This document shows positions 3,830-62,079 of a stretch of DNA of 64,000 bases, in pieces. The DNA is taken from contig JALWPK010000137.1 of NCBI GenBank assembly GCA_026995045.1, forward strand, positions 83 to 64,082, in the 5' to 3' direction. The notes under the pieces are model-generated. The model saw only the letters and a list, made by a program, of their open reading frames with translations, searched no databases and was not told the DNA's origin. Source of the stretch: Gammaproteobacteria bacterium. Its GTDB lineage: Bacteria; Pseudomonadota; Gammaproteobacteria; SZUA-229. The position numbers and the translations under genes are program-made. How positions within the stretch are numbered: position 1 is the first letter of the stretch; the number at the start of each line of letters is the position of its first letter.

Positions 3830-3832
3830 TCG

Positions 3833-4609: not shown

Positions 4610-4644
4610 AACCTTGTGCCTCCCCGAATCTCATCTATCATCCG

Positions 4645-4671: not shown

Positions 4672-4715
4672 AACAGGGATGATGCTATTATTCAACAAAT
4701 TGTAGGCAAGCAGGC

Positions 4716-6407: not shown

Positions 6408-6413
6408 CCAGAC

Positions 6414-8544: not shown

Positions 8545-8550
8545 GCCTGC

Positions 8551-12332: not shown

Positions 12333-12334
12333 GA

Positions 12335-15309: not shown

Positions 15310-15329
15310 GATGCTGTCAGCTCTGCGTG

Positions 15330-16949: not shown

Positions 16950-16991
16950 TGTGACACCATTTGTTCACATCGCACCTGTCAGACAGACTTG

Positions 16992-43418: not shown

Positions 43419-43434
43419 TGGCATGCGACTTGCT
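43419..43434 (+). promoter_or_regulatory. Sigma-54 promoter of the GlyGly-CTERM gene
   Basis: TGGCATGCGACTTGCT = GG-N10-GC; IHF-like TAACCCACTGAAA at 43387-43399. Confidence 0.8.
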
Positions 43435-43549: not shown

Positions 43550-44386
43550 ATGCTTAAATCGTTGTTAACTGTCCTGCCTCTCGTACTGTTTTCACAAGCA
43601 GCACTGGCAATCACCCAGGTTTTTACCGTCGATGGCGCACGCTCCAAAATCACGCTGAGGCTGATTGATGTGGGTGGCGTTGATTCGGCGCCGGTTGATG
43701 TCGGACTTGACGGGGAGTTTGCTATCAACATCGGCGCGCCGACCGCTGGCGCCGCCACCACCGATCCGAAAAACTGGAACGTCAGCGCCGGTCTGATCAA
43801 GGACGATACGATTGCGCCTGTCAGCGCGGTGATTACTGCGCCACCGATCACACTGTCCGCCAACGGCGTGGTGGTGACCATCGACACCCTTGTGCTAACC
43901 GGTTTCAGCGTCGGCAACAACTATCCGCCCACGACTCTGGCCGGCGGCCCGCCGGTCTCTTCGGGTTCGCAGACTACTAATGCCGAGTTTGTCGCTGCCG
44001 GCGACATTCAGATCGGACCGACATCGGTACCAATACCCAACGCCCCGACACAAACGGCTGACACGGCTTTTTCAATTGAACTTGCGGACGCCGACCAGCT
44101 GGGCGGCGCAACCGGCAATACCGTCGCCCACATTACGGCAACCACAGCCGCCACCATCACCACAACGGCCGCCGCCGGGCAACTTGAAGTGGTGCTGGAT
44201 ATGTACGGTTACGCCGACTACAGCGGCGCGGTGAATCCGGCTCCAACAACGGGCGGCGGCAACTCAGGTGGCAGTGGCTCCTCTGGCGACAGTTCATCTC
44301 CCAGCGGCGGCGCGGCAGACTGGTTGCTGCTGTCTGGTTTAACTGTTGCGCTGCTCGGCATTCGACGCCGAAACAAACAAGCGTAA
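43550..44386 (+). CDS. Secreted beta-rich protein with GlyGly-CTERM (rhombosortase) signal
   Basis: Signal peptide ending QAALA; Gly/Ser linker, then SGGAADWLLLSGLTVALLGIRRR. Confidence 0.85.
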   Translation: MLKSLLTVLPLVLFSQAALAITQVFTVDGARSKITLRLIDVGGVDSAPVDVGLDGEFAINIGAPTAGAATTDPKNWNVSAGLIKDDTIAPVSAVITAPPITLSANGVVVTIDTLVLTGFSVGNNYPPTTLAGGPPVSSGSQTTNAEFVAAGDIQIGPTSVPIPNAPTQTADTAFSIELADADQLGGATGNTVAHITATTAATITTTAAAGQLEVVLDMYGYADYSGAVNPAPTTGGGNSGGSGSSGDSSSPSGGAADWLLLSGLTVALLGIRRRNKQA

Positions 44387-44391: not shown

Positions 44392-44418
44392 TAACCGCCC
44401 TGACAGGCAGGGCGGTTA
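44392..44418. terminator. Hairpin between convergent genes
   Basis: TAACCGCCCTG-ACAGG-CAGGGCGGTTA; weak U-tails. Confidence 0.6.
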
Positions 44419-45225
44419 GCGTTTAACGTTTTCGATTACGCCGTCGCGTTCCAGCTTCATTTCGATGCTGGTTGAAAACAACAACCCCATGATGATGCTG
44501 TTGATATTGTCCGGGTTGTTCAGCGCTACGCCGTTGATTTCCATGACGATGTCGCCTGGCTGGATGCCGATGCTGTCCAGGTAAACACCTTCCGGCGGGT
44601 TGATCTGATAGCCCAGCACATTGCCATCGCGCGATACCGGCCTGGCGCCCATCAGTTGCAACAGCCCGGACGGGCCATCATTGACAATCAAATCGCGCAC
44701 TTCGGCCAGCGCGGTTTGCGCATCCATGTCTTCAATGCCGGGGATGATATCGTTGCCGCTTTCCGTCGCTGTCGAAGTAGATGCCGTCGGGTTCTGTTGA
44801 ATAATGACGCCTGCTGTCTGACTTCCGCCAGACAATGCGCCCTGCTCGCTATCACGCGAACGTTGCGCATCATAGGCGTCGTTCGCGTTGTGCGGTTCCG
44901 CAAACGTTGACCCAGCCCTTCCGCCACGTGCGGTTGTCGAGCTTTGCCCGCCGCCTGTTCGGGCTGGCCAGGATGATGGCGCGTTGTTCACATGTGTCAT
45001 TAGCGTGTTGTTGCGCGCCGGGTGTTGCGCCATGCGCTCACCTGCTGTGCGCTGGCTGCCGGCCTTGAACGATGCCGACCGTCTGTCTGCCTGATGTTGT
45101 GTAACCGACTGCAAATCAGTGTTCCGGTTTACAACTGTTTCATCATCCCACACCGAGTAAAGCGCTGTAGCGATAATCAGCGCACCGGCCGGCATGACCC
45201 AGTTGTTGTTATGAAACAACCACAT
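44416..45225 (-). CDS. Membrane-anchored protein with GspC-like C-terminal PDZ domain
   Basis: N-terminal TM, long disordered linker, RPVSRDGNVLGYQINP..GIQPGDIVMEING..L. Confidence 0.75.
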   Translation of the reverse strand: MWLFHNNNWVMPAGALIIATALYSVWDDETVVNRNTDLQSVTQHQADRRSASFKAGSQRTAGERMAQHPARNNTLMTHVNNAPSSWPARTGGGQSSTTARGGRAGSTFAEPHNANDAYDAQRSRDSEQGALSGGSQTAGVIIQQNPTASTSTATESGNDIIPGIEDMDAQTALAEVRDLIVNDGPSGLLQLMGARPVSRDGNVLGYQINPPEGVYLDSIGIQPGDIVMEINGVALNNPDNINSIIMGLLFSTSIEMKLERDGVIENVKR

Positions 45226-45227: not shown

Positions 45228-46880
45228 TTATTCTTCAGGCGAGTCTTTACCGCTTTCCAGTTCGTGCGGCAATTTGCCGCCATGTTTTTTCAGCAGCTCA
45301 ATCATCTCGACACGGTCTTTTTCGATGGCCCACTGCAAGGCGGTTTTGCCTTCCTTGTCGATAACATTGACGTCGATACCGGCATCAATCAGCATACTGC
45401 CGATTTTTACAAAGCCGCTGGCGGCGGCGTAGATCATGGCGTTGCGTTTGTTTTCATCACGATGATTGACTTTGGCGCCCTTGCCAAGCAGATAGTCCAC
45501 TGCCGCTATCTTGCCACCGCTGGTGGCGAAAATCAGGGGACTGACGCCGCCGTTGTTGGTGGCGTTAACATCAGCGCCGTGCTCAACCAGATTTTCGATA
45601 TTTTTCATGTTGCCTTTCAGTGAGGCGTACATCAACGATGTGTTGCCGTCTTTTTCACGCGCGTCCACCTTGGCGCCGGCCTTGAGCAATGTGTCCGTTG
45701 CTTCCAGGCGCTCTTTCTGCGCGGCCTGAATCAATGCCGTGCGCCCCATGCTGTCGTGTATTTCGGTATCGGCGCCTGCTGCAAGCAGTATTTTGATGCT
45801 GCCATCATGATTCAATGCGGCGGCATTAATCATGGCCGTGCGGTTATCCTTGTCGCCATGATTCACTTTTGCGCCGTTTTTAATCAGCAGTTTTACGATT
45901 TCATCATGCCCCTTGCGCGCAGCATAGATGAGGGGAGTTTTTTTGAAATTATCCTGCGCATTGACGTCAGCGCCTTTTTTCAATAACCATTTCGCCAGCT
46001 TGATGTCATTGTTGTTGGCTGCGATCATCAACGCGGTGACGCCATCAATCAGTGGCGTGTCGACTTTCAGACCACGGTCGACATACAGTTTGACCAGGTC
46101 GAGGTTGCCCTTGATCAGGGCGTGATGGAAACCATTCATGCCTTCGTTGTCAGACTCGAACAGGTCGGCGCCCTTGTCCGCCAGCATGCTGACCAGTTCG
46201 GTCTGTCCCGCCTGCGCCGCCAGCAACAAGGCGGTGACATTGAATTCGTCCTTGATGTTCACGTCGATGCCATGCTCGATTAACCATTTGGCCGTGTCGT
46301 ACTGTTTGCCGTTGATTGCGATAATCAACGCAGACGAACCGTCATCGTCCGTTGCGTTGATGTTGGCGCCTCGCTTGACCAACAGCTCCAGTACCGGAAT
46401 CTCGCCGCGAAATGCCGCCCATAACAAGGCGGTTGCGCCACGCTTGTCTTCAGACTCGATACGCGCGCCCTTGTCCAGCAGGTAGTCGACTATCGCCTTG
46501 TGTCCAAACTTGGCGGCGACAATCAGCGCGTTGTCGCCATCATCATCTTTCAGGTTGATGCTTGCGCCCTTGTCTATCAACAGTTTGACCGTATCAAGAT
46601 GGCCTTCTGAAGCCGCCCATAACAAGGCGGTTGCGCCCTTGGGGTCACGCCAGTCAACATTGGTACCTTCTTCCAGCATGCCCTTGATGACTTCATTGTT
46701 ACCATTGCGCGCCGCCTGGATAAACATTTGTTCCTGCGCAGTCTGGCCGGCTATGGCTGACTGCTGGGGAATGGTCGGTATATCGTCTTCAGCAAACGCA
46801 TGCATCGACACCGTAAACAACAGTGATGCGCCGGCAACGACTGCGCTGTAATGAACAAGTTTATTTAAACGATGACTCAT
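45228..46880 (-). CDS. Exported ankyrin-repeat protein (15 repeats)
   Basis: Signal peptide ending HAFA; 33-aa TALxxAA..G...V..LL..GA.VN..D repeats; identical 26-nt copies at 46414-46439 and 46612-46637. Confidence 0.93.
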   Translation of the reverse strand: MSHRLNKLVHYSAVVAGASLLFTVSMHAFAEDDIPTIPQQSAIAGQTAQEQMFIQAARNGNNEVIKGMLEEGTNVDWRDPKGATALLWAASEGHLDTVKLLIDKGASINLKDDDGDNALIVAAKFGHKAIVDYLLDKGARIESEDKRGATALLWAAFRGEIPVLELLVKRGANINATDDDGSSALIIAINGKQYDTAKWLIEHGIDVNIKDEFNVTALLLAAQAGQTELVSMLADKGADLFESDNEGMNGFHHALIKGNLDLVKLYVDRGLKVDTPLIDGVTALMIAANNNDIKLAKWLLKKGADVNAQDNFKKTPLIYAARKGHDEIVKLLIKNGAKVNHGDKDNRTAMINAAALNHDGSIKILLAAGADTEIHDSMGRTALIQAAQKERLEATDTLLKAGAKVDAREKDGNTSLMYASLKGNMKNIENLVEHGADVNATNNGGVSPLIFATSGGKIAAVDYLLGKGAKVNHRDENKRNAMIYAAASGFVKIGSMLIDAGIDVNVIDKEGKTALQWAIEKDRVEMIELLKKHGGKLPHELESGKDSPEE

Positions 46881-46948: not shown

Positions 46949-47332
46949 TCATTGTTTGATAATGCTGCATGCGTACCAGTCCATTTCAGGATGACGGGCC
47001 TTTACTTCAGGCCTGAACATTACCTGTGTTTGCAGTTTGAAATACCCCGGCCAGGGCACGCCGCGTGACTGTCTGATAATTTCGATAAATTTCTGTGTCT
47101 CATCGTGCGGCGCATCGCCTGCTTGACTGACATATTTCACTTCACCAAAGCAGGCAAGCTTGTTCCAGTCTGTTTTGGGCTGGATGCGCACCATCAAATC
47201 AATGCGACATTTTTCCGTATCATCAAGCTGATGCATAAATGTATTGCAGGCAAGCTTGCGCAGGCGGGCGGTAACGTGTTCGCCTGACCATGCCGGTGAG
47301 GCCAGTGAAAAGAGTACGATTGTAATTATCAT
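46949..47332 (-). CDS. Small exported 4-Cys hypothetical protein
   Basis: ATG overlaps the cusA stop (ATGA); signal peptide MIITIVLFSLASPAWS. Confidence 0.65.
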   Translation of the reverse strand: MIITIVLFSLASPAWSGEHVTARLRKLACNTFMHQLDDTEKCRIDLMVRIQPKTDWNKLACFGEVKYVSQAGDAPHDETQKFIEIIRQSRGVPWPGYFKLQTQVMFRPEVKARHPEMDWYACSIIKQ

Positions 47333-50300
47333 TCGCATGATACGAGCCTTCCTGTTTTCAGTTTGTGTGACATCCACAGGTAATACAGCGCGGGAATCAG
47401 CACCATCGAAACCAGTGGCGCCGTCAGCATACCACCCAGCATGGGCGCTGCTATTCGCGCCATGACTTCCGAACCAGCGCCGCCGCCGAGCATGATGGGC
47501 AACAAGCCCGAGATTATTACGGCCACGGTCATTACCTTGGGCCGCACACGCGACAAGGCGCCCTCGATGACCGCTTCACGCAATTCTGTGAGGTTTGCAG
47601 GCTTGCGCGTTTTGACGGACTGTTCCAGATAAACCAGCATCACCACGCCGAACTCGGCCGCCACTCCGGCGAGCGCTATAAAACCAACCGCCACCGCGAC
47701 CGACAGGTTATAGTCCAGCAAATACAGCAACCAGAATCCGCCGACCAGCGCCAGCGGCAAGGAACTGATAACCATCATCGCCGATGTCATGTTGTTGAAG
47801 TTCAGATATAAAAGCACCACGATCAGTATCAGTGTCACCGGGACAATGTATGCGAGCCGCTGCTTGGCGCGCTGCATGTATTGATACTGACCCGCCCAGC
47901 TGATGGTATAGCCTGAGGGCAATTTCAGTTTTTCCGCCAGCAGGGCGCGCGCATCTTCCACGTAGGATCCGATATCGCGTCCACGTATATCGAGGTAGAC
48001 CCAGCCGTTAAGCCGGGCGTTTTCGGTTTTGATAACCGCCGGGCCGTCCTTGATGGTGATGGTGGCGATCTCTTCCAGCCTCAGGGTTTCCCTGCCGGGC
48101 GCAAAAATCGGCAGGCGTTTTAACTGTTCCGGCGAATCACGATAACTCAGTGGAAAACGCATATTGATGGGGTAGCGCTCGCGGCCTTCCACGGTATAGG
48201 CGATGTTGGTGCCGCCCACGGCCATGCTGATATAGTCCTGGATTTCGCGTACGCTCAAATCGTATCGCGCAGCAAGGTCGCGGTCGACGGTGAAGTCAAC
48301 ATAGTGCGCGCCGCCCACGCGTTCGGAATACACACTGTGCGTTCCCGGCAGGGTTTTCAGCAAACGCTCAATGTCCTGGCCAATGGATTCTATGACCTGT
48401 AAATCCGGCCCGGCTATTTTCACACCCACTGGAGTTTTGATGCCGGTGGCCAGCATGTCGATGCGCGCGGAAATCGGCATCAACCAGGCATTGGTGACGC
48501 CGGGAACCTGTACGATTCTGTCCAGCTCTTCAATCAAACCCTGGATATCCAGTCCTTCGCGCCACTGATCCTCCGGTTTCAGCTGAATTGTGGTTTCCAT
48601 CATGGTGAGCGGCGCGGGGTCGGTGGCTGTTTCCGCGCGCCCGGCCTTGCCGAATACGCGCACCACTTCGGGCACGGTTTTGATTAGCCGGTCGGTTTGC
48701 TGCAACAGTTCACGTGCCTTGCCGATGGAAAGCCCCGGCAGGGTGCTTGGCATGTACAACAAATCGCCCTCGTTCAACTGCGGCATGAACTCGGCGCCCA
48801 TTTTGACATACGGCCACAGGGTTGAAGCGACCAGCAAGACAGCAAGCAGAACAACCTGCCACGGTTTGCGCAACGCCCAATCAACCAGCGGGCGATAGCT
48901 TCGCAGCATCAACCGATTAACAGGATTATTGCCTTCCGCCATGATGCGCCCGCGAATCAGATAAACCAGCAGCGCAGGCACAAGCGTGATGGACAATATG
49001 GCGGCTGCGGCCATTGCATAGGTCTTGGTGTACGCCAGTGGTGAAAACAATCGTCCTTCCTGCGCCTGCAGTGTAAACACCGGCAAAAAGCTGATGGTGA
49101 TAATCACCAGCGAGAAAAACAGCGGCGCGCCGACTTCATTCAATGCGCTCCTGATTGCTTCGATGCGATTACCGTTCGACAGGTTTTCTTCCATGTGTTT
49201 GTGCACGTTTTCAATCATCACGATAGCCGCATCCACCATCGCGCCGATAGCAATCGCGATGCCGCCCAGCGACATGATGTTGGCGTTGATGCCCTGCAAC
49301 CGCATAATGATAAAGGCGCACAGTATGCCAATCGGCAGGGTGATCAGAATCACCAGCGCCGAGCGCAGATGCACCAGGAACAGGGCGCAGACAATCACCA
49401 CCAGCAGAAACTCTTCCAGCAAACGGCTTTGCAGCGTGCTGACTGCGCGTTCAATCAGCGACGCCCGGTTGTAGGTTTCGACGATCTCCACTCCATCGGG
49501 CAAACCCTGTTGCAGCTCGGCCAGCTTTTGTTTGACCCGTTCGATGGTGGTTCTGGCGTTTTCGCCCCAGCGCATCACCACGATGCCGCCAACCACTTCG
49601 CCCTCACCATCGAGGTCCGCAATGCCGCGTCGCAGTTGCGGCCCGGTGCGGATGTCTGCGATGTCAGACAGCACCAGTGAATTGCCGGACAGTCTTTTTC
49701 TCACATAGGGCACGTTTTCAAGATCCCGGATATCCGAGATATAGCCTCGCCCACGCAACATGTATTCAGTTTCGCCAAATTCGATAACCGAACCGCTGAC
49801 TTCGTTGTTGGCGTCAAGTATCGCCTTGCGAATGCCTTGCAGAGTCAGATTGCTGACCTGCATCTGCCCTGGGTCAATCACCACCTGATACTGCTTGACC
49901 ATGCCACCGAGCGTGGCCACTTCCGCCACGCCGGGAAGGGTTTGCAGTTCGTATTTCAAAAACCAGTCCTGCAAACTGCGCAGTTCCGCCAGATCATGCT
50001 GGTGATTTCTGTCCACCAGGGCATACTGGTATACCCAGCCGACGCCGCTGGCGTCCGGGCCAAGCGTGGGCTGCACGCCCTCCGGCAACTGGCCAGTCAC
50101 CTGGTTAAGGTATTCCAGCACGCGGGTGCGCGCCCAGTAGGGATCAGTGTCATCATCGAAGATGACATAGACATAGGAGTCGCCAAAAAAGGAATAGCCG
50201 CGCACGCTGGTGGCGCCCGGCACGGACAGCATGGCGCTGGTGAGCGGATAGGTCACCTGGTCCTCGACAATTTGCGGCGCCTGTCCGGGATAGGGCGTTT

Positions 50301-50448
50301 TGATAATCACCTGCACATCGGAAAGATCCGGTATCGCATCCAGCGGAATACTGCGCAACGCGAGGGCGCCGGACAGGCTTAACAACACCGCCAGCAATAA
50401 CACCAGCGAGCGGTTGTTAATCGACCAGTTGATGATGCGGTTAATCAT
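47329..50448 (-). CDS. cusA: Cu(I)/Ag(I) RND transporter CusA
   Basis: LDAIPDLSDVQVI, GPDASGVGW, AIGAMVDAAIVMIEN; Met triad in LLYMP, PLTMME, RIDML. Confidence 0.95.
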   Translation of the reverse strand: MINRIINWSINNRSLVLLLAVLLSLSGALALRSIPLDAIPDLSDVQVIIKTPYPGQAPQIVEDQVTYPLTSAMLSVPGATSVRGYSFFGDSYVYVIFDDDTDPYWARTRVLEYLNQVTGQLPEGVQPTLGPDASGVGWVYQYALVDRNHQHDLAELRSLQDWFLKYELQTLPGVAEVATLGGMVKQYQVVIDPGQMQVSNLTLQGIRKAILDANNEVSGSVIEFGETEYMLRGRGYISDIRDLENVPYVRKRLSGNSLVLSDIADIRTGPQLRRGIADLDGEGEVVGGIVVMRWGENARTTIERVKQKLAELQQGLPDGVEIVETYNRASLIERAVSTLQSRLLEEFLLVVIVCALFLVHLRSALVILITLPIGILCAFIIMRLQGINANIMSLGGIAIAIGAMVDAAIVMIENVHKHMEENLSNGNRIEAIRSALNEVGAPLFFSLVIITISFLPVFTLQAQEGRLFSPLAYTKTYAMAAAAILSITLVPALLVYLIRGRIMAEGNNPVNRLMLRSYRPLVDWALRKPWQVVLLAVLLVASTLWPYVKMGAEFMPQLNEGDLLYMPSTLPGLSIGKARELLQQTDRLIKTVPEVVRVFGKAGRAETATDPAPLTMMETTIQLKPEDQWREGLDIQGLIEELDRIVQVPGVTNAWLMPISARIDMLATGIKTPVGVKIAGPDLQVIESIGQDIERLLKTLPGTHSVYSERVGGAHYVDFTVDRDLAARYDLSVREIQDYISMAVGGTNIAYTVEGRERYPINMRFPLSYRDSPEQLKRLPIFAPGRETLRLEEIATITIKDGPAVIKTENARLNGWVYLDIRGRDIGSYVEDARALLAEKLKLPSGYTISWAGQYQYMQRAKQRLAYIVPVTLILIVVLLYLNFNNMTSAMMVISSLPLALVGGFWLLYLLDYNLSVAVAVGFIALAGVAAEFGVVMLVYLEQSVKTRKPANLTELREAVIEGALSRVRPKVMTVAVIISGLLPIMLGGGAGSEVMARIAAPMLGGMLTAPLVSMVLIPALYYLWMSHKLKTGRLVSCE

Positions 50449-50472: not shown

Positions 50473-51810
50473 TCATTCCGCCATTCTTCTGAAGCCGGCT
50501 CTCAGGTTGCTCTCTGAATCGAGCAGAAACTGGCCGGACACCACGACCTTGTCGCCTTCCTGCAAGCCTTCCAGCACTTGCACATAATCGCCGCTTTCAA
50601 TTCCGGTCTTGATGGCCACCGGCTGAAAGCCGCCATCCTCCAGCATACGCACCACATGGGTTTCGTTTTCATAACGAATCAGCGCATCGCGCGGCACGCT
50701 CAGGATGTTGTCATGCCGGTCGCCCACCACGGTGGCTTTGACGTACATGGAGTTTTGCACCAGGAACTGCGGCACATTGAACGCGAAACGAACGCCTATG
50801 GTGCGCGCGCTCGATGTCATGCGTGAGGCTTTCTGACTGACAATGCCCGGCCAGGTTTTAGACGGCGCATGCGGGATGGTCAGCTCGGCGGGGTAGCCGT
50901 TTTCGATCCAGGCGATGTCGCGCTGCACCGCATCGGCCACTACGGTGATTCTGGCGTATGCCTGCTCCGCATACAGCTCCTGCCCGGCGTCAACCACCAT
51001 GCCCGCCTCAACCTTGCCCAGGGGTATCAATGTGCCGGTATCCGGCGCCAGCAAATCGAATTCGGTGAGTATGCTGCCGCTTTGTTCCAGCTCGCGTATC
51101 TGCGCATTGCTCAGTCCAATCTGCCTCAAGCGCTGACGACTGTTCTCCAGCAACGACTGCGAATCATCCGGCGGTGACTCTGTCTGGTCGTCCGACTGGA
51201 GGCTGGTTGCCGCTTCTGTTTCGCTCGTGGCTTCGTCGTCTATTTGCGCGGCGCCTTGCTTCTGTGCGTTATATAACGCAAGGTGTTCCGCCTGTGCATC
51301 TTCCGCCAGTTGCGACACCATGGTGAGCAGCTTGTCGCCCTGTTTGACGAGTTGTTTGTCGGCAATATAAACCCGCTGCACCTTGCCGGTGACGGGCGCT
51401 CTCAATTTGTAGCGTTTGCCGGACTTGATTGAGCGCACAAAGCCTGGCGCGGTGACCTTGCGGAACAAAGTGCGTTTTTCCACGGTGTCCAGCTTGATGC
51501 CAAAGTTATGCCGCACATCAGGTGAAATTCTGACAACCGGAAAATCACTGTCATCCGTTGCGGAATCCGGCTGTATTGCTTTTTCGACCAGCTTCATGCC
51601 GCATATTGGGCAGCTTCCCGGCTGGTCGGATATTATCTGTGAATGCATCGGGCAGACATAACCCGGTTCGAGGTGTCTGGCTGCATGCTCCATAGCGGTT
51701 TCGGTTGGTTTGGGCGGGTTGAGCACATAACGCTCAAGCGCCACGCCGCCTGCCAGCGCCGAGGCAAGCACGATTATTCCAACAACTAATCTAGATACAT
51801 TCATGGTCAC
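50473..51810 (-). CDS. cusB: CusB-type periplasmic adaptor with heavy-metal-binding domain
   Basis: YVCPMH..PGSCPICGM.L; C-terminal GL..GD.VVVSGQFLLDSESNL. Confidence 0.88.
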   Translation of the reverse strand: MTMNVSRLVVGIIVLASALAGGVALERYVLNPPKPTETAMEHAARHLEPGYVCPMHSQIISDQPGSCPICGMKLVEKAIQPDSATDDSDFPVVRISPDVRHNFGIKLDTVEKRTLFRKVTAPGFVRSIKSGKRYKLRAPVTGKVQRVYIADKQLVKQGDKLLTMVSQLAEDAQAEHLALYNAQKQGAAQIDDEATSETEAATSLQSDDQTESPPDDSQSLLENSRQRLRQIGLSNAQIRELEQSGSILTEFDLLAPDTGTLIPLGKVEAGMVVDAGQELYAEQAYARITVVADAVQRDIAWIENGYPAELTIPHAPSKTWPGIVSQKASRMTSSARTIGVRFAFNVPQFLVQNSMYVKATVVGDRHDNILSVPRDALIRYENETHVVRMLEDGGFQPVAIKTGIESGDYVQVLEGLQEGDKVVVSGQFLLDSESNLRAGFRRMAE

Positions 51811-51942: not shown

Positions 51943-52008
51943 AAAAAGACCCGGCCAGGCCGGGTCTGAAAAAATAATCCATCACCCGGGCTATTCCCGG
52001 GTGATGGA
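51943..52008 (-). terminator. Tandem intrinsic terminators after the 849-aa gene
   Basis: Minus strand TCCATCACCCGGG-AATAG-CCCGGGTGATGGA-TTATTTTTT, then AGACCCGGC-CTG-GCCGGGTCT-TTTT. Confidence 0.85.
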
Positions 52009-52021: not shown

Positions 52022-54571
52022 TTACCGTTTGGTTACAAAGGTCATGGCGTGCGGGGTGGCGTTACCTGCACCAGCGGCGCGTGCGCCAGCAGCAGGCCAC
52101 GATTTGCCACTGTCACCGAAGTCCGGATCAATACAACCCTGAGGTGAAGTATTGTCGCCAGCATTGAATGAGGTATCCAATGTCAGCGATCCGGTCCAGC
52201 GGTTCAGCTTCATCATGCAGATGGTGTCGTCACCCACGGAGCCGGTGCCCGGCAGCACGTTGGTTTGACCCAGCAAGCCGCCCAGACCACCTGGCGCCGG
52301 CGTGCCGTTGCCACCGGTTGTGCCTGCGGCGGTGAAGCCTGTTCCCGGTACATAGGCGTCCAGCAGTCCAAGCGCTGCTTTCAGAGTGCCGGTGTCAGCA
52401 ATCGCATACTCACGCAGATCCACGAAGTAGTTGCTGGTGGCGACATAGCGCTCCAGTTCATCGTGAACCACAAAGTGAGGTCCGCCACGGGTGGTTTCCG
52501 CATCCGGATGATCGTCCGCCGTGCCAGGAATGCCGTCAGCGCCGTTACCATCGTAGTAAACCACTGAAGCGATGGTCGGGCAGTCTGGTGAACCGTTGTT
52601 TGGCCAGTATCCGGTTGCGCTGTACGCAGCCGCCATCGGGCCGGAAGTATGCTCCGGATGACCCAGAACACCTGACGGTCCCAGTGTCAGCGGCTCACCC
52701 AACGGGGTCAACGTACCCGGATCTTCAGACCACTTGCTCACGGCTGCAGGTGTCACACCGTCCATTTCATAGCTTGAATCATTACAGGTGTGGGCTGTGC
52801 CAGCGGCCAGCAGGTTTTTGATATCCAGCGCAACAACACGCATGGAGTGTTCGCCTGCATAATCGCGGTCATGCACCGGGTCGCCGCCAGCAGCAGCCGG
52901 AGGAGACACATCAGTCTGAATACCGGACAGCGGCACGATCAGGTAGCGGTCGTTGCGTGTCACGGTAAATACTGATGCCCCGGTACAGGCGCCGAAGTCA
53001 TAAACATTGCGGAACTCCGGAACCTGAACGGTTACGTCTGGTGAATAGAAGATGGAGCCACCACACATGGAAGCAACGAACGCGCCCTTGTGTGCGCGGC
53101 GGTTGGTCATGGCCATCGCCATCAAACCTTCGTTTTCCTCGTGGATCTGGTTATCTTCATGACGCGGGCCGTCCGGCATTTCCACAACCGCATACGGACC
53201 AGCGGCCATGTTGTCCATGTCCCACAAACGAATTGTGGTGCCCAGGTTCTGTGCTGAAGTCTGCGGACCTTCACCGGAGCCTGTCAGCGCCAGTGATACC
53301 GGGTCGGCATAGTCAGACGCCATGATGATGCCCTGACCACCCATCGGGTTGGGCAGATCCGGGCGTATGCCCACACCATGTGGATGCGCCAGCAGGCCGG
53401 TATCCGGGCCTTCGTTGATGCCGTTAGGCAGATCAACCGCGCCGGTATCCGGGCCAAGACCTACACCGGCGCCAGCCAACGGACCCGGAACCGGGTTGCC
53501 GTTTCCGTCAACACTGCCCAGCACAATCTGGGTGCGCGGCGCATAGCGTTTCGGCCCAAGCATGGGTGAACCGTCAGCAAATGTACCAGCGTTCGGCAGC
53601 GGCGCTGACGGGATGGCGGTGTACTCCGCAACCACCGTATTGGTGGCGGTATCGATTTCAACCAGGCCACCCGGCGTCGTCAATGTCGGCGGCAGGGTGA
53701 TGGAGCCCGGCACGAATGTGCCCTTGGCGCCCATGTAGGTGGCAATTAGATGACCTCCACCCATTGGCAGCAGGTCGTCCGTACCGGAGTAGTTCACCAC
53801 ATCCTTGCCACTGATGCTGAGACCGCAGAAGTTATTGGTGCGACCCAGCAGGTCTGTAGTGGTACCGGCTGAAGGCTTGATGTTCAGCGGGTCGGTGATA
53901 TCACAACCGAAGATATTGGCGCTGATCAAGCCGGCAGGGTAGATGTTGCGTGAACCATCGGCGCCTATCACATGCTGCACATTCATATGATGGGATTCAT
54001 TCAGGATGGAAGACGGCGCCAGAATGCCATTGACTTCACCCAGAATATCACCGAATTTTGCGGTGTAGTCTCCTGCACCCGGAATCGTACCGCCACCGGT
54101 ACCAGAGCCATCGCCACCAGCGACAATATCCAGCGCATTGTCAACAAAGTTCTCGGTTTCAGACAACAGGTGCTGATCCAGCACAATAGGCATTTCTGCT
54201 GTGTTGACAATCTGACCGTAGGTCGGCGAGCTCGGCTCGGCGTCAATCACGGCGAGGAAGTCAGCGTCCGGCATCGCGCCAGGCAGAGCGGAGACGCCAC
54301 CGAGGTTGTTCAAATCAGCAGGGCCATCTACCACGCCATCCGGCGGGTTGCCGTCGGTGCCATCAGGAAACACGATGGCGTCCAGCGGGCTGACATTGAC
54401 GCCATCGAGCATCTGGTCGCCCATCCAGACCACCAGGTATTTGTGAGCGGTGTTAAAGCCGGGGAAAAACCCAAGGGCATTCGCCTGCTGTGACACACCC
54501 AGCGTACCTGCCGATAACGCGGCGGCTACGCCCATCGCCGTAGCAGTACGTTTAAATAGTGAACATTTCAT
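52022..54571 (-). CDS. Secreted SBP56 / methanethiol-oxidase-fold beta-propeller, divergent, 849 aa
   Basis: Signal peptide ending QANA; YLVVW.GD, DFLAVIDAEPSSPTYG, NESHH, HPHG, SDY, TIRLWD, GGPHF, SNYF, LTLDTSF, terminal PHAM. Confidence 0.78.
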   Translation of the reverse strand: MKCSLFKRTATAMGVAAALSAGTLGVSQQANALGFFPGFNTAHKYLVVWMGDQMLDGVNVSPLDAIVFPDGTDGNPPDGVVDGPADLNNLGGVSALPGAMPDADFLAVIDAEPSSPTYGQIVNTAEMPIVLDQHLLSETENFVDNALDIVAGGDGSGTGGGTIPGAGDYTAKFGDILGEVNGILAPSSILNESHHMNVQHVIGADGSRNIYPAGLISANIFGCDITDPLNIKPSAGTTTDLLGRTNNFCGLSISGKDVVNYSGTDDLLPMGGGHLIATYMGAKGTFVPGSITLPPTLTTPGGLVEIDTATNTVVAEYTAIPSAPLPNAGTFADGSPMLGPKRYAPRTQIVLGSVDGNGNPVPGPLAGAGVGLGPDTGAVDLPNGINEGPDTGLLAHPHGVGIRPDLPNPMGGQGIIMASDYADPVSLALTGSGEGPQTSAQNLGTTIRLWDMDNMAAGPYAVVEMPDGPRHEDNQIHEENEGLMAMAMTNRRAHKGAFVASMCGGSIFYSPDVTVQVPEFRNVYDFGACTGASVFTVTRNDRYLIVPLSGIQTDVSPPAAAGGDPVHDRDYAGEHSMRVVALDIKNLLAAGTAHTCNDSSYEMDGVTPAAVSKWSEDPGTLTPLGEPLTLGPSGVLGHPEHTSGPMAAAYSATGYWPNNGSPDCPTIASVVYYDGNGADGIPGTADDHPDAETTRGGPHFVVHDELERYVATSNYFVDLREYAIADTGTLKAALGLLDAYVPGTGFTAAGTTGGNGTPAPGGLGGLLGQTNVLPGTGSVGDDTICMMKLNRWTGSLTLDTSFNAGDNTSPQGCIDPDFGDSGKSWPAAGARAAGAGNATPHAMTFVTKR

Positions 54572-54606: not shown

Positions 54607-55179
54607 TCAGGCTGTTTTCTTTTTACGGTTGAACAGTCCGAGGCCAAACAGGCCTGACAGGAAAAGCGGCAAGGCTGCCGGCACGGGCACAACCGATGTT
54701 TGCGCCATGCCAATAACGTCTGTGCCGTTGCCATAGTTCACCGTTACACTGAGCATGACTGAGGAACCGGACAGCACCAGGCTGCCAAACGATACGTCCA
54801 GCGTGCCGAACATTGTGCCGCCGCTGAAAGTCACGCTGCCATCGCCGGGCATGCCGGTAACGTCATCCCAGGCCGCCATGCTCCAGCCGTTAAACGGGGA
54901 GCTGCCTACATTATTGATAGTCAGGTTGAGGTCGAACGACCCACCCATGCCATCCGTTTCGAATGTACTTAAAATCGGATCCACACCATTGACGGTAGAT
55001 GAATCTATAGTGCCGCTTACCGTTGATCCATCGATCACGGTATACACGGCTGCCTGACTGCCGCCGATGCCTGCCGCGCTGTCCTGATAAGCATCGATGA
55101 TCGCGGACTGCGCCGTCCCGGTCATCGCCATCAGGGCAGCCGAGGCGATCAGCCCAGGCCGTAATGTTGTTTTTATCAT
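54607..55179 (-). CDS. Secreted protein with VPLPA-CTERM (PEP-CTERM-type exosortase) signal
   Basis: GGAGG RBS before ATG 55179; signal peptide ending TAQS; C-terminus VPVPAALPLFLSGLFGLGLFNRKKK. Confidence 0.88.
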   Translation of the reverse strand: MIKTTLRPGLIASAALMAMTGTAQSAIIDAYQDSAAGIGGSQAAVYTVIDGSTVSGTIDSSTVNGVDPILSTFETDGMGGSFDLNLTINNVGSSPFNGWSMAAWDDVTGMPGDGSVTFSGGTMFGTLDVSFGSLVLSGSSVMLSVTVNYGNGTDVIGMAQTSVVPVPAALPLFLSGLFGLGLFNRKKKTA

Positions 55180-55324
55180 TTCACCCCTCCAGGTAGAATT
55201 TGAACATTTGTACTCATTACAGGTTTCTGGCACGTTTACACCAACCCAAGTCCGACTGACATAATGTCAGCCTTATCAATGACCCGTGTCATATCGCCGT
55301 GACAGTCACCACACGACGTTAAAG

Positions 55325-55340
55325 AGCAACAACCATGCCA
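55325..55340 (-). promoter_or_regulatory. Sigma-54 promoter of the VPLPA-CTERM / SBP56-like operon
   Basis: Minus strand TGGCATGGTTGTTGCT = GG-N10-GC; IHF-like AATTAATAAGTTA at 55361-55373. Confidence 0.8.
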
Positions 55341-55454
55341 ACAAATAAAAAATACTATTCAATTAATAAGTTATGATGTTTGTAGCGAATTACCCCTGCG
55401 CCAGCAAGGCTTTTATTAAGGCACGTTTAATGTTCACACAGCGTCGTCTAATAC

Positions 55455-55471
55455 TGTCAACAACACCGACA
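55455..55471 (-). promoter_or_regulatory. PEP-CTERM-box-like enhancer (TGT-N11-ACA)
   Basis: Minus strand TGTCGGTGTTGTTGACA, about 115 bp upstream of the -24 element. Confidence 0.65.
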
Positions 55472-55550
55472 CTTTTCGCCTTGCGCCATACAAAGGGAGT
55501 ATCAGTTAATATAATAAAAACAAGTAGTTAGAATATTACTTGAGGGAATC

Positions 55551-55578
55551 AAAAAAGCTTGCCACCAGGCTGGCAAGC
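55551..55578 (-). terminator. Orphan terminator-like hairpin
   Basis: Minus strand GCTTGCCA-GCCTGG-TGGCAAGC-TTTTTT with no ORF upstream on that strand. Confidence 0.55.
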
Positions 55579-56085
55579 GAGCCACGGCTTTCAGACATAT
55601 TGTCATATAATGGTAAAATCATGTATGTAATCTATTGATAAAACTGGGTTTAATTTTTCACATTGCATTTATACCGAAATTAAATAAACCGACACGTATA
55701 TAAGCGATGCATAATACGCCGATATACTGCTGAAATTTTGTCATGAACGGTATTTAAGTTGATAAAACATGCAAGGTAATATCTAATATAATCAATATAG
55801 TAGTATACTAATTTTTTAATTATACAGGTATTATCAATATTCTTTGATAAATACCGATATATATATAAACTTAAACCTGCTTCGCCTTACTATTATCGCC
55901 ATGATAAATTTCTGACATATTGTCGCACACCGTGCGTTTTCTCATCTCACCAGCATCAATCGTGACAATATGTCATGTTGCCGCCTGCAGAAAACTGCCT
56001 GACTGGCTTCCACGCTTCGCTATTTTCTATAAGCTATGTATGCCGGTTTCCAGAAACACGCTCTTTGGCGCTGTAAGGCATTTCC

Positions 56086-59619: not shown

Positions 59620-59943
59620 ATGATTGATTTTGCGCTGATCACGGGTTTTGAATGGGATGCCGGCAATGCCCGCAAGAACGAAAAACACGGTGTCAGCATG
59701 GCCGAGGCGGAGCAGGTGTTTTTTAACCAGCCCTTGCTCGTTCTGCAGGATGCCCGCCACAGCCTGACCGAGCTGCGGTTTCATGCGCTGGGTAAAACAG
59801 ACGCCCGCCGTCTGCTGCATATCACGTTCGCCCTGCGACAACAAAACAGCAAAATCCGTGTCATATCAGCCAGACCCATGCACAAGAAAGAGCGGAATAT
59901 TTATGAAAAAGCCACCCGAAAAAATCCCCGAATTCCGCACTGA
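59620..59943 (+). CDS. brnT: BrnT-family ribonuclease toxin
   Basis: FEWD..N..KN.KHGV...EAE.VF, E.R..ALG, IRVISAR..ER..Y. Confidence 0.9.
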   Translation: MIDFALITGFEWDAGNARKNEKHGVSMAEAEQVFFNQPLLVLQDARHSLTELRFHALGKTDARRLLHITFALRQQNSKIRVISARPMHKKERNIYEKATRKNPRIPH

Positions 59944-60169
59944 AGCCGACGAAAGACGGTTCTGGGAAGAACATGATTCCTCAGACTACCTCGACTGGAA
60001 TCAGGCGGAGCAGGTAGTGCTGCCGAATCTGAAACCGACCACCAAAACCATTTCACTGCGTCTGCCGCAGCATCTGCTCGACGCCATCAAGTCCGCCGCG
60101 CACGCGCGGGACGTGCCTTATCAGTCGCTTATCAAGGTATGGCTACAGGAAAAGCTGCATGAGCGCTAG
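59903..60169 (+). CDS. brnA: BrnA/CopG-type RHH antitoxin
   Basis: IPEF.TEA.ER.FW..HD, TISLRLP..L..IK..A..DVPYQSLIK; overlaps the toxin gene. Confidence 0.88.
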   Translation: MKKPPEKIPEFRTEADERRFWEEHDSSDYLDWNQAEQVVLPNLKPTTKTISLRLPQHLLDAIKSAAHARDVPYQSLIKVWLQEKLHER

Positions 60170-60233
60170 CAAGGTTTTTGCGTGAGGCCGCTGAAAACTA
60201 TAAAGAAGATGGCTTACATTAAGGAATATATCT

Positions 60234-60440
60234 ATGCCGAATTATTTAAAAAAGTGGATGTATTTTTTATGTTACGCAACTATGTTCGCAGGTGCGTATA
60301 TTCTGTTGTTCAGAGATTATATTCGTGTGTATAAATACCGTAACTATGTTGATTTTGGTGAATATCACCAAATAATAGGTTTAACACTTATTGTTTTTGG
60401 CTATGTATTTTTACGTTTCGCAAAGAAAAAACTTAACTAA
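60234..60440 (+). CDS. Small 2-TM hypothetical protein, AT-rich
   Basis: AAGGA RBS; two hydrophobic segments; ends at ACTTAAC (RYYYAAC). Confidence 0.55.
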   Translation: MPNYLKKWMYFLCYATMFAGAYILLFRDYIRVYKYRNYVDFGEYHQIIGLTLIVFGYVFLRFAKKKLN

Positions 60441-60610
60441 GGCACTCGAAACATTATGCCATTACTAAACAATGTACCAAGCACTCTGTTCACGAAGAGT
60501 TTTTCGTAAAGTAGTAGGCGTGTAACAACAAACCCCACCTGTCAGCACAAGCATAGTGACGTTAGGTGCGGTGCTTTTTATGGTCAGGCGTAGTGCATTA
60601 TTAGAACTCA

Positions 60611-61333
60611 TTACTTTTGCTCCACTTCGATACCCTTTATGGCTTTCACCTGAGCATCTTCTTCTAACAATTTCACTTTTACTTTTTTTCCAGTATTAGT
60701 GCCAATGTAATTCTTTGATGCGGCAACAAGTATAGGAAAGACCCTTCGCAGGTCACCGCTTGTTCCTGTGCTTGTCACGATAGTTTTCCATAGTTGCACT
60801 TCCTTTTGTGACTTTCTGTATTCATCTAAATCGACGGCATCCAGCAGCATGAACCTGAAATAAGTTACATAAGAGCCTGAATGAGTTGTTGAGCCCGTAA
60901 CACCGTATGTTGGCGTATATGTTGTTGTGCCAGAATACATACCATAACCACCATACGAGCTAACCGTACCAGTTGTATAAGAAGATAACACTCCAGTTTG
61001 CCCCCATGTAGGCAATGAATATGTGTACTGGTGCTCTTGAGGATCGCCAATGCCGTAGCCTAGAAATATCGCGACATTTGCTTCTTGTAATGTTTCAGCT
61101 TGGATAAAACCCTTCTCTTGCAGCGCCCGATTTACATATCTTGCATATTCCTGGAACTGGAGACTGCTTGGTTTTGTATCTTTGTTCCCAGGCAATAGGA
61201 TATATGTTTTGTTGGATCCAGCATCTCCAATTGAATCAACGTTGACATAAAATGTTGGAGGCCGCATGTTGGCACAACCAGACAAAAGCAGCACACTAAA
61301 CCATAGAGATATTATTACAATCTTTAATTTCAT
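60611..61333 (-). CDS. Hypothetical lipoprotein (DUF4136-like), cassette-like
   Basis: Lipobox LLSGC; Thr/Gly/Tyr-rich core; flanked by GTTAGAACTC and GAGTTCTAAT. Confidence 0.85.
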   Translation of the reverse strand: MKLKIVIISLWFSVLLLSGCANMRPPTFYVNVDSIGDAGSNKTYILLPGNKDTKPSSLQFQEYARYVNRALQEKGFIQAETLQEANVAIFLGYGIGDPQEHQYTYSLPTWGQTGVLSSYTTGTVSSYGGYGMYSGTTTYTPTYGVTGSTTHSGSYVTYFRFMLLDAVDLDEYRKSQKEVQLWKTIVTSTGTSGDLRRVFPILVAASKNYIGTNTGKKVKVKLLEEDAQVKAIKGIEVEQK

Positions 61334-61379
61334 ACCGTTCTCCCTTACGAGTTCTAACTATTTGTTATAAGCTATAGAC

Positions 61380-61823
61380 ATGAAAATCATATATGCCAAC
61401 ATTGTATTTTTTCTGTTTGTGTTATATGGCTTGATTGGTACCACGCAAATCAGGCTCACTTCAAAGTTTTGGCAGAGTATGGATAGCCTTACAACCGAAT
61501 ATGATCTTGTTTCAGTCATTTTCGTTGTCTGGTTAATTTTCACAATAATAGGCTTGGTCATGAAAAAACCATGGGCTTATGCTCATGCATTATCTGCTAA
61601 TGCTGTTATAGCGGTAGTGCCTATGTTGTTGTACATTGTTGCAACCATTATGCTTTGGGGTGAAATTGATCATATTGAATCAGCAAAACGATCAGCAAAT
61701 GATTTTATTGTTTCTATTACCAGCTTTGTGTTTTGGTTAATACTGTATAAATCCAGCAAAGTTAAAAACGCATATAACAAATCGCCAAACCAAGCCAGCG
61801 CAAACAACGCGCCTCATGGTTAG
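61380..61823 (+). CDS. 4-TM hypothetical membrane protein, cassette-like
   Basis: AT-rich; preceded by GTTATAAGC; stop codon falls inside the attC-like site. Confidence 0.75.
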   Translation: MKIIYANIVFFLFVLYGLIGTTQIRLTSKFWQSMDSLTTEYDLVSVIFVVWLIFTIIGLVMKKPWAYAHALSANAVIAVVPMLLYIVATIMLWGEIDHIESAKRSANDFIVSITSFVFWLILYKSSKVKNAYNKSPNQASANNAPHG

Positions 61824-61837
61824 CTCAGCCGTTATCG
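61770..61837 (+). mobile_element. attC-like integron recombination site
   Basis: GCATATAAC-AAATCGCCAAACC ... GGTTAGCTCAGCC-GTTAT; R''/L''/L'/R' layout. Confidence 0.7.
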
Positions 61838-61854
61838 GGCCGCTCTACCCGCAC

Positions 61855-62079
61855 CTACGCACAGCAGGCCCGCATGCCAGTCAACACATGGCTGATGTCC
61901 TTGCCTAGATGCGGATGGTGTTGCAGCTGTTGAAAACAGACATCGAAGCGCTGAATGTACTGCCGCGCCTTGTGGCGTCCGAAATTTTCCAGGCTGTAGC
62001 GATAAATTGCTTCCAGGTCAGCCTCGGCCGCCGGTTTTAGCTTCAGATGATGGACGGATTCAGAATTGGTTTTCTTCAT
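61855..62079 (-). pseudogene. parE: ParE/RelE toxin, apparently C-terminally truncated
   Basis: L.PAAEADLEAIYRYS..NFG...A..Y..P.LG; stops before the expected H.I.Y / RVLH C-terminal strands. Confidence 0.7.

Follow-up and report, generated by a model that had tools for sequence, protein, structure and literature searches.

In nitrous oxide reductase, the channel of a seven-bladed propeller binds a multi-copper centre, CuZ, through seven inner-strand histidines. Copper-dependent oxidases have also been described from the SBP56 superfamily. For the bacterial methanethiol oxidase MtoX, the available parts of one report list H89, H90, H140 and H412 as copper ligands of the Hyphomicrobium enzyme (PMC5739008), and W223 and W386 of the Ruegeria pomeroyi enzyme RpMTO are the tryptophans proposed to form a tryptophan tryptophylquinone (TTQ) cofactor (PMC10936201). 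Human SELENBP1 produced in E. coli was active with copper alone, and mutation of its HxxH motif (H137/H140) lowered its copper content, according to the accessible portion of a further report (PMC10362175). As regards thiocyanate dehydrogenase (TcDH), PMC6504805 describes Cus-like genes and a sigma-54 regulator at its loci in Thiohalobacter and Guyparkeria, and the authors propose for them a role in copper supply. Here we analyse a stretch of 64,000 nucleotides—hereafter the window—from a gammaproteobacterial genome of the SZUA-229 lineage (assembly GCA_026995045.1, contig JALWPK010000137.1, positions 83 to 64,082 of the forward strand), which encodes a large propeller protein, predicted to be exported, next to genes for a CusBA-type copper pump.

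The protein combines a modelled SBP56-type fold with a set of conserved histidines different from that of MtoX, holds neither of the two proposed TTQ tryptophans, and belongs to a family whose genes adjoin copper-handling genes. What is new is not the SBP56 scaffold but the ligand set, the size and the gene partnership, and we found no paper in the open-access literature that ties SBP56 proteins to Cus pumps. Our best explanation is a TTQ-independent periplasmic copper enzyme with a rebuilt metal site, metallated after Sec export and served by CusBA as a supply module. Taken whole, we give this account about an even chance of being right.

Fold, relatives and metal site of the propeller protein

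The propeller gene (Table 1) is preceded by a GGAG-type ribosome-binding site, and its product begins with the leader MKCSLFKRTATAMGVAAALSAGTLGVSQQANA/LG, in which a basic n-region, a hydrophobic core and an AxA site (ending ANA/LG) can be recognised by eye, with no RR. A preliminary description, made from the sequence alone, had proposed a Sec-type signal without a twin arginine, the motifs NESHH, HPHG, GGPHF (52472-52486) and a terminal PH, two loops, and a length about twice the usual one owing to Gly/Pro/Asp-rich insertions. All of this held up. The leader agrees with inspection and with a model helix at residues 5-24; the motifs lie in the translation as placed, as do the loops DGNPPDGVVDG (within residues 59-98) and GADGIPGTADD (within 674-686); and the protein measures 849 residues, about 280 of them inserted. 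By comparison, the reading frames of seven canonical MtoX span 457-513 residues, counted from ATG to stop, a count that may set some starts too far upstream; 2ECE, the SBP56 structure from Sulfolobus, has 455-462. It is 13 extra segments relative to shorter relatives, 280 residues in total, that make the protein a 'giant'; their combined content of Gly, Pro and Asp ranges from 0.27 to 0.62, compared with 0.30 for the whole protein. Four co-varying pairs of cysteine columns (223/249, 503/529, 596/664 and 785/813) suggest disulfides in the alignment, and hence an extracytoplasmic protein.

An AlphaFold2 model computed from a 48-sequence family alignment forms a seven-bladed propeller (mean predicted local distance difference test, pLDDT, 81.1; predicted TM-score, pTM, 0.87), with its low-confidence stretches falling in the insertions. 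Foldseek returned 2ECE as the best match (E 8.7e-12, target TM 0.67); nitrous oxide reductases came next, with E about 5e-6. VIA-align, run on the Foldseek candidates and independently on 48,161 representative chains, placed 2ECE first both times (Z 24.2, root-mean-square deviation 2.5 Å, 381 of 455 residues, 20% identity, model residues 40-847 on chain residues 22-451); generic seven-bladed propellers came after it, with Z ≤22.4 and ≤336 aligned residues. Clusters of SBP56 proteins were also reached by an ESM Atlas feature search. At the level of sequence, phmmer against the PDB matched 2ECE only (E 0.046, the 34 residues 100-133), and a family-profile search of the PDB likewise found 2ECE only, apart from one chance row at E 0.57. 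Comparison of profiles by hhalign gave 97.7% probability for the long-form alignment (defined below) against MtoX, only over the first ~180 positions, and for the short forms against the seven MtoX 98.9% over 275 columns in local mode and 99.6% in global mode, a mode that scrambles the C-terminal half. Profile-profile homology to bona fide SBP56 members is reliable for the N-terminal ~60% only. On the evidence of the model, the fold is of the SBP56 type, as the preliminary description had it, with 2ECE topping Foldseek and both VIA-align scans. The distance from MtoX expected there is equally plain: on the MtoX equivalog NF052453 the window protein scores 9.9 bits against a 650-bit cut-off, whereas canonical MtoX of the same class score 729-794 bits.

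A word-indexed search of 5.8 billion proteins recovered 134 relatives of the window protein, and an exhaustive phmmer scan of 1.84 billion cluster representatives gave 99 clusters at E ≤0.001, only 19 of them at ≤1e-30. The family comes in a long form of about 750-1020 residues, none with a Pfam SBP56 annotation, and a short form of about 535-594 residues; precomputed annotation assigns PF05694 to 36 of 120 listed relatives, all of them short forms of 535-594 residues. Among the matches listed, no relative is labelled beyond 'hypothetical' or 'SBP56-related', the latter being the name that one source gives to a short-form member. In a maximum-likelihood tree of 48 aligned family members and seven canonical MtoX, the long form makes up a single clade (Shimodaira-Hasegawa-like approximate likelihood-ratio test, SH-aLRT, 100) nested in a short-form grade, and a branch of about 5 changes per site parts MtoX from the whole family. 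By sequence, the propeller family is thus a small, uncharacterised clade distinct from MtoX. Sulfur oxidisers and methanotrophs predominate among the named carriers of the long form, which are Thiohalobacter, Sulfuricaulis, Thiothrix, Thiolinea, Granulosicoccaceae, Methylomonas and Usitatibacter; the Methylomonas, Thiothrix and Thiohalobacter lineages are represented by metagenome-assembled genomes. The nearest relatives, 63-71% identical, come from metagenome-assembled genomes of Thiohalobacter, and the DNA runs that contain the propeller stretch are hydrothermal vent metagenomes.

A second copy of the gene lies in the same assembly. The contig that holds the window (C137) and contig C145 are syntenic, with 83-95% DNA identity over more than 20 kb, and the shared stretch takes in the gidA/gidB/parAB origin region as well as the propeller-cusBA cluster. 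Both propeller copies are 849 residues long and 95.2% identical without gaps. The pair suggests that two strains were binned together, not that the region was duplicated; contamination is estimated at 6.5%.

Conservation of residues was counted in the alignment of 48 family members. H194, H195, H396, H398, H699 and H841 are invariant (48/48), as are N191 and E192, and H575 is found in 47 of 48; with such conservation, the histidine motifs are not a matter of chance. Seven bona fide MtoX from genomes of the same class, scoring 765-794 bits on NF052453, served as the comparison set, and the published ligand and tryptophan numbers were mapped onto their alignment by spacing, consistently, with an offset of +8 before and +7 after one indel. 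Four MtoX motifs have counterparts in the family. NEAHH is kept as NE(A/S)HH. VVGPHT corresponds to SGTDD, so that the copper-ligand histidine (H140 in Hyphomicrobium, H141 in RpMTO) is replaced by the invariant Asp265 (48/48; D266, 46/48). ADGYGYD corresponds to AHPHG, with two new histidines, and TSSFTGW to SDYADP, in which the position of the first proposed TTQ tryptophan (RpMTO W223) is taken by Pro424 (48/48; Y421, 41/48). An alignment of the GPH segment to 2ECE by HMMER moves the register by a few residues, and the segment is without histidine in every register. At the C terminus, MtoX RAHQMRF and family TPHAMTF are paired in profile alignments of low significance; H841 is therefore the likely counterpart of the fourth canonical ligand, and three of the four canonical histidine ligands (H194, H195 and H841) are kept, with Asp265 as the H140 equivalent. 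The homologues of H194/H195 and H841 line the cavity of 2ECE, as stated in the available text of PMC5739008. Followed by eye through the MtoX-2ECE alignment, GGPHF..ELERYVATSNYFVDL lines up with GAPQM..RDGRRVYVTNSLYSTW, a register in which His699 coincides with the Q/N conserved in the 'PQM/VNM' motif of SBP56 proteins and Leu719 falls at or next to the second proposed TTQ tryptophan.

In the secondary structure of the model, the conserved histidines stand at or just before the starts of beta-strands (193-195, 397-407, 578-583, 700-703 and 838-848), and D265/D266 lie within strand 261-271. Judged from the model, this strand-start pattern is what one would expect if successive blades supplied the ligands from their inner strands, as happens in other copper propellers.

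The window protein has six tryptophans, at positions 49, 450, 614, 656, 792 and 825. None falls in the interiors of 450-614 or 656-792, and none lies within about 25 residues of P424 or 60 of L719 (46/48), to which W656 and W792 are the nearest. Since this list leaves no candidate near L719, the second TTQ tryptophan is missing whatever the register. W450 matches a structural tryptophan also conserved in MtoX (VVVWDL); W49 is conserved in 47 of 48 members, the remaining row being a gap, and W825 in 48 of 48. The lack of TTQ tryptophans noted in the preliminary description is thereby upheld, the proposed positions holding Pro424 (48/48) and Leu719 (46/48). Some of its other statements on MtoX need revision: no tryptophan follows the GPH motif, which reads GPHT(T/M/S)Y in all seven canonical MtoX, and GGPHF is not the MtoX GPH site, whose histidine aligns with Asp265. 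The TTQ cofactor of MtoX, taken there as known, is a proposal drawn from the mauG neighbour and from inspection of 2ECE in what is available of PMC5739008.

Copper-handling neighbours and regulation

Of 78 related loci, 27 of the long form and 18 of the short form were analysed. The remaining 33 (L042 and L053-L084), either partial or remote matches, many over residues ~102-125 only, or actinobacterial proteins matching ~98-600, do not enter any of the counts. Three of the 27 long-form contigs end too soon to be judged; of the other 24, 22 carry a cusB-like gene on the same strand as the propeller gene and downstream of it. cusA comes next wherever the sequence allows (20 long-form loci), and the gene for an ankyrin-repeat protein is present in 16 of 27. 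The motif C53/P54/M55/H56/C67/P68/C70 of the CusB-like protein is invariant in 20 orthologues. In all seven pumps compared, those of the window and of six related loci, methionine occupies the positions aligned with M573, M623 and M672, which we take to be the three-Met Cu(I) site of CusA. Short-form loci have another neighbour: a SCO1/SenC gene follows immediately downstream in 12 of 18 (Pfam 94-111 bits in the four scanned) and directly downstream in 0 of 27 long-form loci. SCO1/SenC likewise adjoins canonical mtoX, according to the available parts of PMC5739008. The copper role put forward in the preliminary description, which did not note these neighbours, thus gains independent support, a CusBA pump adjoining the long form and SCO1 the short form; going by gene context, nothing presented here speaks more strongly for copper binding by the family than these two independent sorts of copper-handling neighbour.

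The usable test for an outer-membrane factor was a Pfam OEP search. It found no OEP-family match on contig C137, this genome's OEP genes lying on C102, C103 and C257 only, and no OEP-family gene inside any of the five long-form loci checked. A tblastn search with E. coli CusC and CusF, of low sensitivity in that it also missed the genome's own outer-membrane factors, gave nothing in the loci or the genome; three own-genome outer-membrane factors used as queries, equally insensitive in that they miss one another, had no match in the 78 loci. A complete canonical cusCBA with its own outer-membrane factor is encoded at C257 62770-68548 (its CusA 60.5% identical to the E. coli protein), and a second heavy-metal resistance-nodulation-division (RND) pump, again with its own outer-membrane factor, at C103 11645-17310. 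The propeller-linked cusBA is therefore an extra copy, without an outer-membrane factor.

Some further genes were seen beside the family. In the short-form loci L047, L048 and L050 (including Methylomicrobium lacus; 28-30% identity to the window protein), a PpiC-type peptidyl-prolyl isomerase gene lies downstream rather than SCO1 or CusBA; in L047 and L050 an RND pump is also encoded, farther off but within 6 kb. In the window, the ankyrin gene is directly followed by a gene for a 269-residue protein (44416-45225, minus strand) with a C-terminal PDZ-like region and a weak match to the type II secretion protein GspC (50 bits against a 101.6 cut-off), which also adjoins the cluster in L019, L044 and L045.

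Table 1. Positions (in the window) of the propeller gene, of notable sites within it and of neighbouring features
Feature	Position	Strand	Remarks
Propeller gene	52022..54571	-	849-residue open reading frame (ORF), ATG start; insertion-expanded SBP56-superfamily seven-bladed propeller, predicted to be exported
Sec-type signal peptide, residues 1-32	54476..54571	-	No twin arginine; by eye; model helix 5-24
NESHH, residues 191-195	53987..54001	-	MtoX NEAHH / SELENBP1 XHHX motif, kept; by hhalign
D265-D266 in SGTDD	53774..53779	-	Asp at the position of the canonical MtoX 'GPH' copper-ligand His; by hhalign
HPHG, residues 396-399	53375..53386	-	Two new invariant His; MtoX has ADGYG there
SDYADP, residues 419-424	53300..53317	-	Pairs with MtoX TSSFTGW; Pro424 at the first proposed TTQ Trp position
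H575 in RDYxGEH	52847..52849	-	Near-invariant His, 47/48
GGPHF, residues 696-700	52472..52486	-	New invariant His699, just before strand 700-703
L719	52415..52417	-	Approximate second proposed TTQ Trp position (MtoX ...NWDKKG); by eye via the 2ECE printout
PH, residues 840-841, in TPHAMTF	52049..52054	-	MtoX RAHQMRF C-terminal copper-ligand His, kept; aligned at low significance
Two tandem intrinsic-terminator-like hairpins	51947..52008	-	Stems of 13 bp and 9 bp with a T run behind each; immediately follow the propeller stop codon
CusB-like membrane-fusion protein	50473..51810	-	N-terminal anchor, periplasmic heavy-metal-binding domain (CPMH...CPxCGM); HlyD_D23, HMBD; TIGR01730 118 bits
CusA-type Cu(I)/Ag(I) RND permease	47329..50448	-	TIGR00914 1241.8 bits; 56% identity to E. 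coli CusA
142-residue exported ORF	46949..47377	-	No family assigned; overlaps the cusA 3' end; no relatives in other loci
550-residue ankyrin-repeat protein	45228..46880	-	Signal peptide (periplasmic); conserved cluster member
208-residue ORF with VPLPA-CTERM/PEP-CTERM-like sorting tail	54607..55233	-	Exported; ends 35 nt before the propeller gene; probable start at internal MIKTTL
Sigma-54-type promoter-like site TGGCATGGTTGTTGCT	55325..55340	-	Some 90-150 nt ahead of the VPLPA-CTERM gene, which in turn precedes the propeller gene

With respect to regulation, strict sigma-54 motifs are rare: the 64 kb hold only two, where 0.43 would be expected, and 6 of 100 shuffles gave at least two. Of 24 related long-form loci, 7 carry the same strict motif ahead of the propeller gene, and these seven account for 7 of the 10 strict plus-strand matches in 393 kb. 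An orthologous PAS-type sigma-54 activator, 44-58% identical over its full length, adjoins 10 of 27 long-form loci; the copy of this genome is on another contig. NCBIfam typing of these activators gave generic matches only, all below cut-off, and no CusRS-type sensor was found beside the Cus-linked loci. To judge from the hairpins that follow its stop codon, the propeller gene is probably transcribed at a higher level than cusBA, or separately from it.

The VPLPA-CTERM gene between this promoter-like site and the propeller gene scores 22.5 bits on TIGR03370, under the 25.35 cut-off, and its product has relatives only in L019, L031, L044 and L045. Upstream of it, around 55234-55950, lies an AT-rich intergenic region of about 700 bp (GC 0.48 in the 54-56 kb bin). 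The second strict sigma-54 motif of the window (43419-43434, plus strand) is located just upstream of a gene for a 278-residue exported protein (43550-44386, plus strand), rich in Gly, Thr and Ala, with a hydrophobic-then-basic C-terminal tail of PEP-CTERM-like character and no Pfam or NCBIfam match. Both motifs in the window thus precede genes for sorting-tail proteins.

Elsewhere in the window, a type II secretion or MSHA-like pilus cluster (2259-19804) encodes a secretin, a T2SSE ATPase with an MshEN domain, T2SSF, pseudopilins with N-methylation motifs and a TPR protein, and is flanked by two sigma-54-dependent response regulators (44-1393 and 18371-19804). A 1155-residue ORF (27482-30949, minus strand) has no Pfam match at E ≤1e-5. 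A stretch of low GC (0.42) at 60-62 kb (60001-62000), possibly an inserted element, contains genes for a CopG-type antitoxin (59783-60169) and a DUF4136 protein.

Proposed mechanism and competing explanations

In the mechanism we propose, the product, a seven-bladed propeller of the SBP56 superfamily and not an MtoX, would be Sec-exported and disulfide-stabilised; it would cross the membrane unfolded and therefore be metallated in the periplasm. Its central metal site would have been rebuilt, with H194, H195 and H841 kept, Asp265 in place of the fourth ligand, and H396, H398, H575 and H699 added, these four at the inner-strand starts of other blades. The protein would thus bind copper, probably more than one ion, and act as a periplasmic copper oxidoreductase without a Trp-derived quinone, most likely oxidising a small reduced compound. 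Family, hosts and vent habitat lead us to guess first at a reduced sulfur species such as a thiol or sulfide. The short form would be metallated by SCO1/SenC; for the long form, the CusB-CusA pump without an outer-membrane factor and the periplasmic ankyrin protein would together form a module for copper supply or handling, in which we infer the direction of copper flow. Expression would be driven from a sigma-54 promoter under a PAS-domain activator and not by a copper sensor.

A bolder version, which we offer tentatively and hold to be improbable in full, would make the propeller, the CusBA pump without an outer-membrane factor and the ankyrin protein a dedicated copper-insertion line. Here, the RND pump would hand Cu(I) to the apo-enzyme to build a new multinuclear centre of six to seven His plus Asp in the SBP56 scaffold, and the holo-protein would oxidise a reduced sulfur or C1-sulfur compound without a quinone, under sigma-54/PAS control.

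Several observations weigh against the copper-enzyme proposal. On the side of the protein, the Pfam profile PF05694 reaches 19.2 bits against a gathering cut-off of 34 bits, over residues 101-132 only, and the C-terminal halves of the propeller family and MtoX show no significant profile alignment (hhalign 0.3%; 0.2-3% for short windows). The correspondences of H699 and L719 were drawn by eye, without statistical support, and the convergence of the histidines in three dimensions is one that we infer only from strand positions in the model and from homology. On the side of the locus, the tandem hairpins separate the propeller gene from cusBA, making the two neighbours and not clearly one transcript, and the divergent Xanthomonadales long-form loci L025 and L046 are without cusBA. 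CusA pumps are detoxification exporters, and to our knowledge a demonstrated metallation of a periplasmic enzyme by one would be unprecedented; the copper-supply role at TcDH loci is itself only a proposal. Two features hint at the cell surface: the sorting tail encoded by the upstream gene, which points to a site that is not purely periplasmic, and the fusion of two relatives (P0061 and P0062) to cadherin/Big_9 domains.

The main rival explanation reverses the relationship and has the propeller serve the pump. As a copper-homeostasis accessory—a periplasmic copper buffer or a cuprous-oxidase partner of CusBA—it would occupy the operon place of CusC/CusF and handle Cu(I) in copper- and sulfide-rich vent fluids. 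The constancy of the linkage (CusB/CusA adjoining in 22 of the 24 evaluable loci) and the position of the propeller gene upstream of cusB, like E. coli cusC and cusF, suit such a role, as do the His-rich site, a CusB partner with His-rich linkers and a periplasmic metal-binding domain, and the origin of the stretch in hydrothermal vent metagenomes. We nevertheless regard it as unlikely. The short forms pair with SCO1/SenC, a chaperone that builds cuproenzymes, as mtoX does in the available account (PMC5739008); instead of an adjacent CusRS there are PAS-sigma-54 activators and sigma-54 promoters; and a full cusCBA is already present in the genome. A 90-kDa propeller with an enzyme-like conserved pocket would also be a costly copper binder. 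Of these points, the SCO1 link concerns the ancestral short form, and with the regulators and the separate cusCBA it argues against this rival.

A copper enzyme could also carry some other protein-derived cofactor, such as kynurenine or an oxidised residue, made by a di-haem protein akin to cytochrome c peroxidase (CCP), MauG or MbnH. The preliminary description gave mauG as absent. This is right for the window, where none of the 47 ORFs matches Pfam CCP_MauG, and falls short beyond it, as a divergent, CCP/MbnH-like di-haem gene adjoins the propeller gene in four loci and also occurs elsewhere in the genome. In L009, L017, L018 and L023, the propeller gene and cusB are separated by a gene for a protein of ~480 residues that has two CxxCH motifs; the copy of this genome (C65:5229-6701, locus L085; 490 residues, 64-70% identical) stands in a housekeeping neighbourhood. 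Besides this placement, the explanation can draw on the conserved tryptophans W49 and W825 and on weak matches of the di-haem protein, which scores 23.5 bits on CCP_MauG (cut-off 25.6) and 30.4 bits on the MbnH model (cut-off 362.85). We hold it to be distinctly improbable. With the di-haem protein as query, a search of ten other long-form genomes recovered the gene in just two, the positive control included. Its family is large (5902 relatives at E ≤0.001 among 8000 scored candidates), some sources call members of it cytochrome c peroxidase, and the adjacency of the gene could equally mean removal of H2O2 or electron transfer. Canonical CCP/MauG genes, four of which lie on other contigs of this genome, were not found in the 78 loci by tblastn with four paralogues of this genome.

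On the distribution and the size of this general family, the di-haem protein was rejected as an obligatory maturase. It is an occasional companion of the propeller and not a required maturase, and its role could lie in scavenging peroxide, in passing electrons or in enzymatic modification.

Very unlikely, in our view, is a non-catalytic exported scaffold or surface protein, that is, a propeller with calcium-binding, Asp/Gly-rich loops used in adhesion or envelope structure. Its insertions are indeed rich in Asp and Gly, two relatives are fused to cadherin/Big_9 domains, the upstream gene encodes the VPLPA-CTERM-like tail, and the second-best structural match is the archaeal surface-layer propeller 1L0Q (Z 22.4). 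The invariant His, Asp and Glu, however, sit at inner-strand starts and not in the loops, which are the least conserved and least confidently modelled parts, and the copper-gene neighbourhoods are consistent. An ordinary MtoX orthologue with long loops, using copper and TTQ, is disfavoured and scarcely credible, for all the shared SBP56 fold, NExHH motif and C-terminal histidine: against it stand 9.9 bits where NF052453 demands 650, Asp for the GPH histidine, the loss of both proposed TTQ tryptophans, a very long tree branch between the two proteins and a window without the mtoX-SCO1-mauG arrangement.

The clade amounts to a natural experiment, in which the HH pair and the C-terminal histidine were kept, both proposed TTQ tryptophans and one canonical histidine lost, and four histidines gained. 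By characterising it, one could learn which of the superfamily's residues are true copper ligands and whether the chemistry can do without a quinone; the only solved structure of the superfamily that we found is an apo form. The near-obligate pairing with a CusBA that has no outer-membrane factor would, should it serve metallation, represent a new use of an RND metal pump. With sulfur oxidisers and methanotrophs as hosts and, here, a hydrothermal vent as habitat, the substrate may matter for sulfur and C1-sulfur cycling.

Comparison with described systems

The propeller-linked pump resembles that of the CusCFBA system in keeping the three-Met site of CusA, at 56% identity to the E. coli protein. 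It differs in that no outer-membrane factor is encoded with it by the Pfam OEP test; the tblastn searches for CusC and CusF, of low sensitivity, were empty as well.

Among copper propellers, nitrous oxide reductase occupies Foldseek ranks 2, 4 and 7 onward (E about 5e-6) and rank 45 of the wide search (Z 16.8, 366 aligned residues). This likeness is at the level of fold only (TM about 0.3), with no sequence relationship, no CuA domain and no nos accessory genes. TcDH (PDB 5F75) gave no phmmer or hmmsearch match to the window protein in the PDB and is not among the best 50 structural rows. Its general plan is nonetheless similar, in that the available text describes a periplasmic seven-bladed multi-His copper propeller of sulfur oxidisers, encoded beside Cus-like genes (PMC6504805). 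According to the same text TcDH is exported by the Tat route, whereas the window protein has a Sec leader.

Within the SBP56 superfamily, 2ECE (Sulfolobus tokodaii ST0059, the only solved structure found) is the best structural match of the model, at 20% identity; it reads LHTVH where the propeller family has no histidine, and has none of the 13 insertions. MtoX, as known from Hyphomicrobium sp. VS and from RpMTO, shares the SBP56-type propeller, export, NE(A/S)HH and the C-terminal (A/P)H(Q/A)M, and a SCO1/SenC gene adjoins both mtoX and the short-form relatives (PMC5739008, available parts). In contrast to MtoX, the window protein is about twice as long, has Asp265 for the GPH histidine and new histidines at 396, 398, 575 and 699, and holds Pro424 and about Leu719 where RpMTO has W223 and W386 (PMC10936201). 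The mtoX-SCO1/senC-mauG arrangement is not found either: the window contains neither SCO1 nor mauG, and the long form is linked to CusBA and the ankyrin protein rather than to SCO1, with no adjacent mauG.

Human SELENBP1 and SEMO-1 of C. elegans, both copper-dependent thiol oxidases, are cytosolic proteins of about 470 residues, and the window protein has no histidine counterpart of their HxxH motif (H137/H140). They belong to the same superfamily, and the XHHX motif essential for their activity is kept in the propeller. As set out in PMC10362175, they demonstrate that a copper-dependent SBP56 enzyme can function without a cofactor made by MauG.

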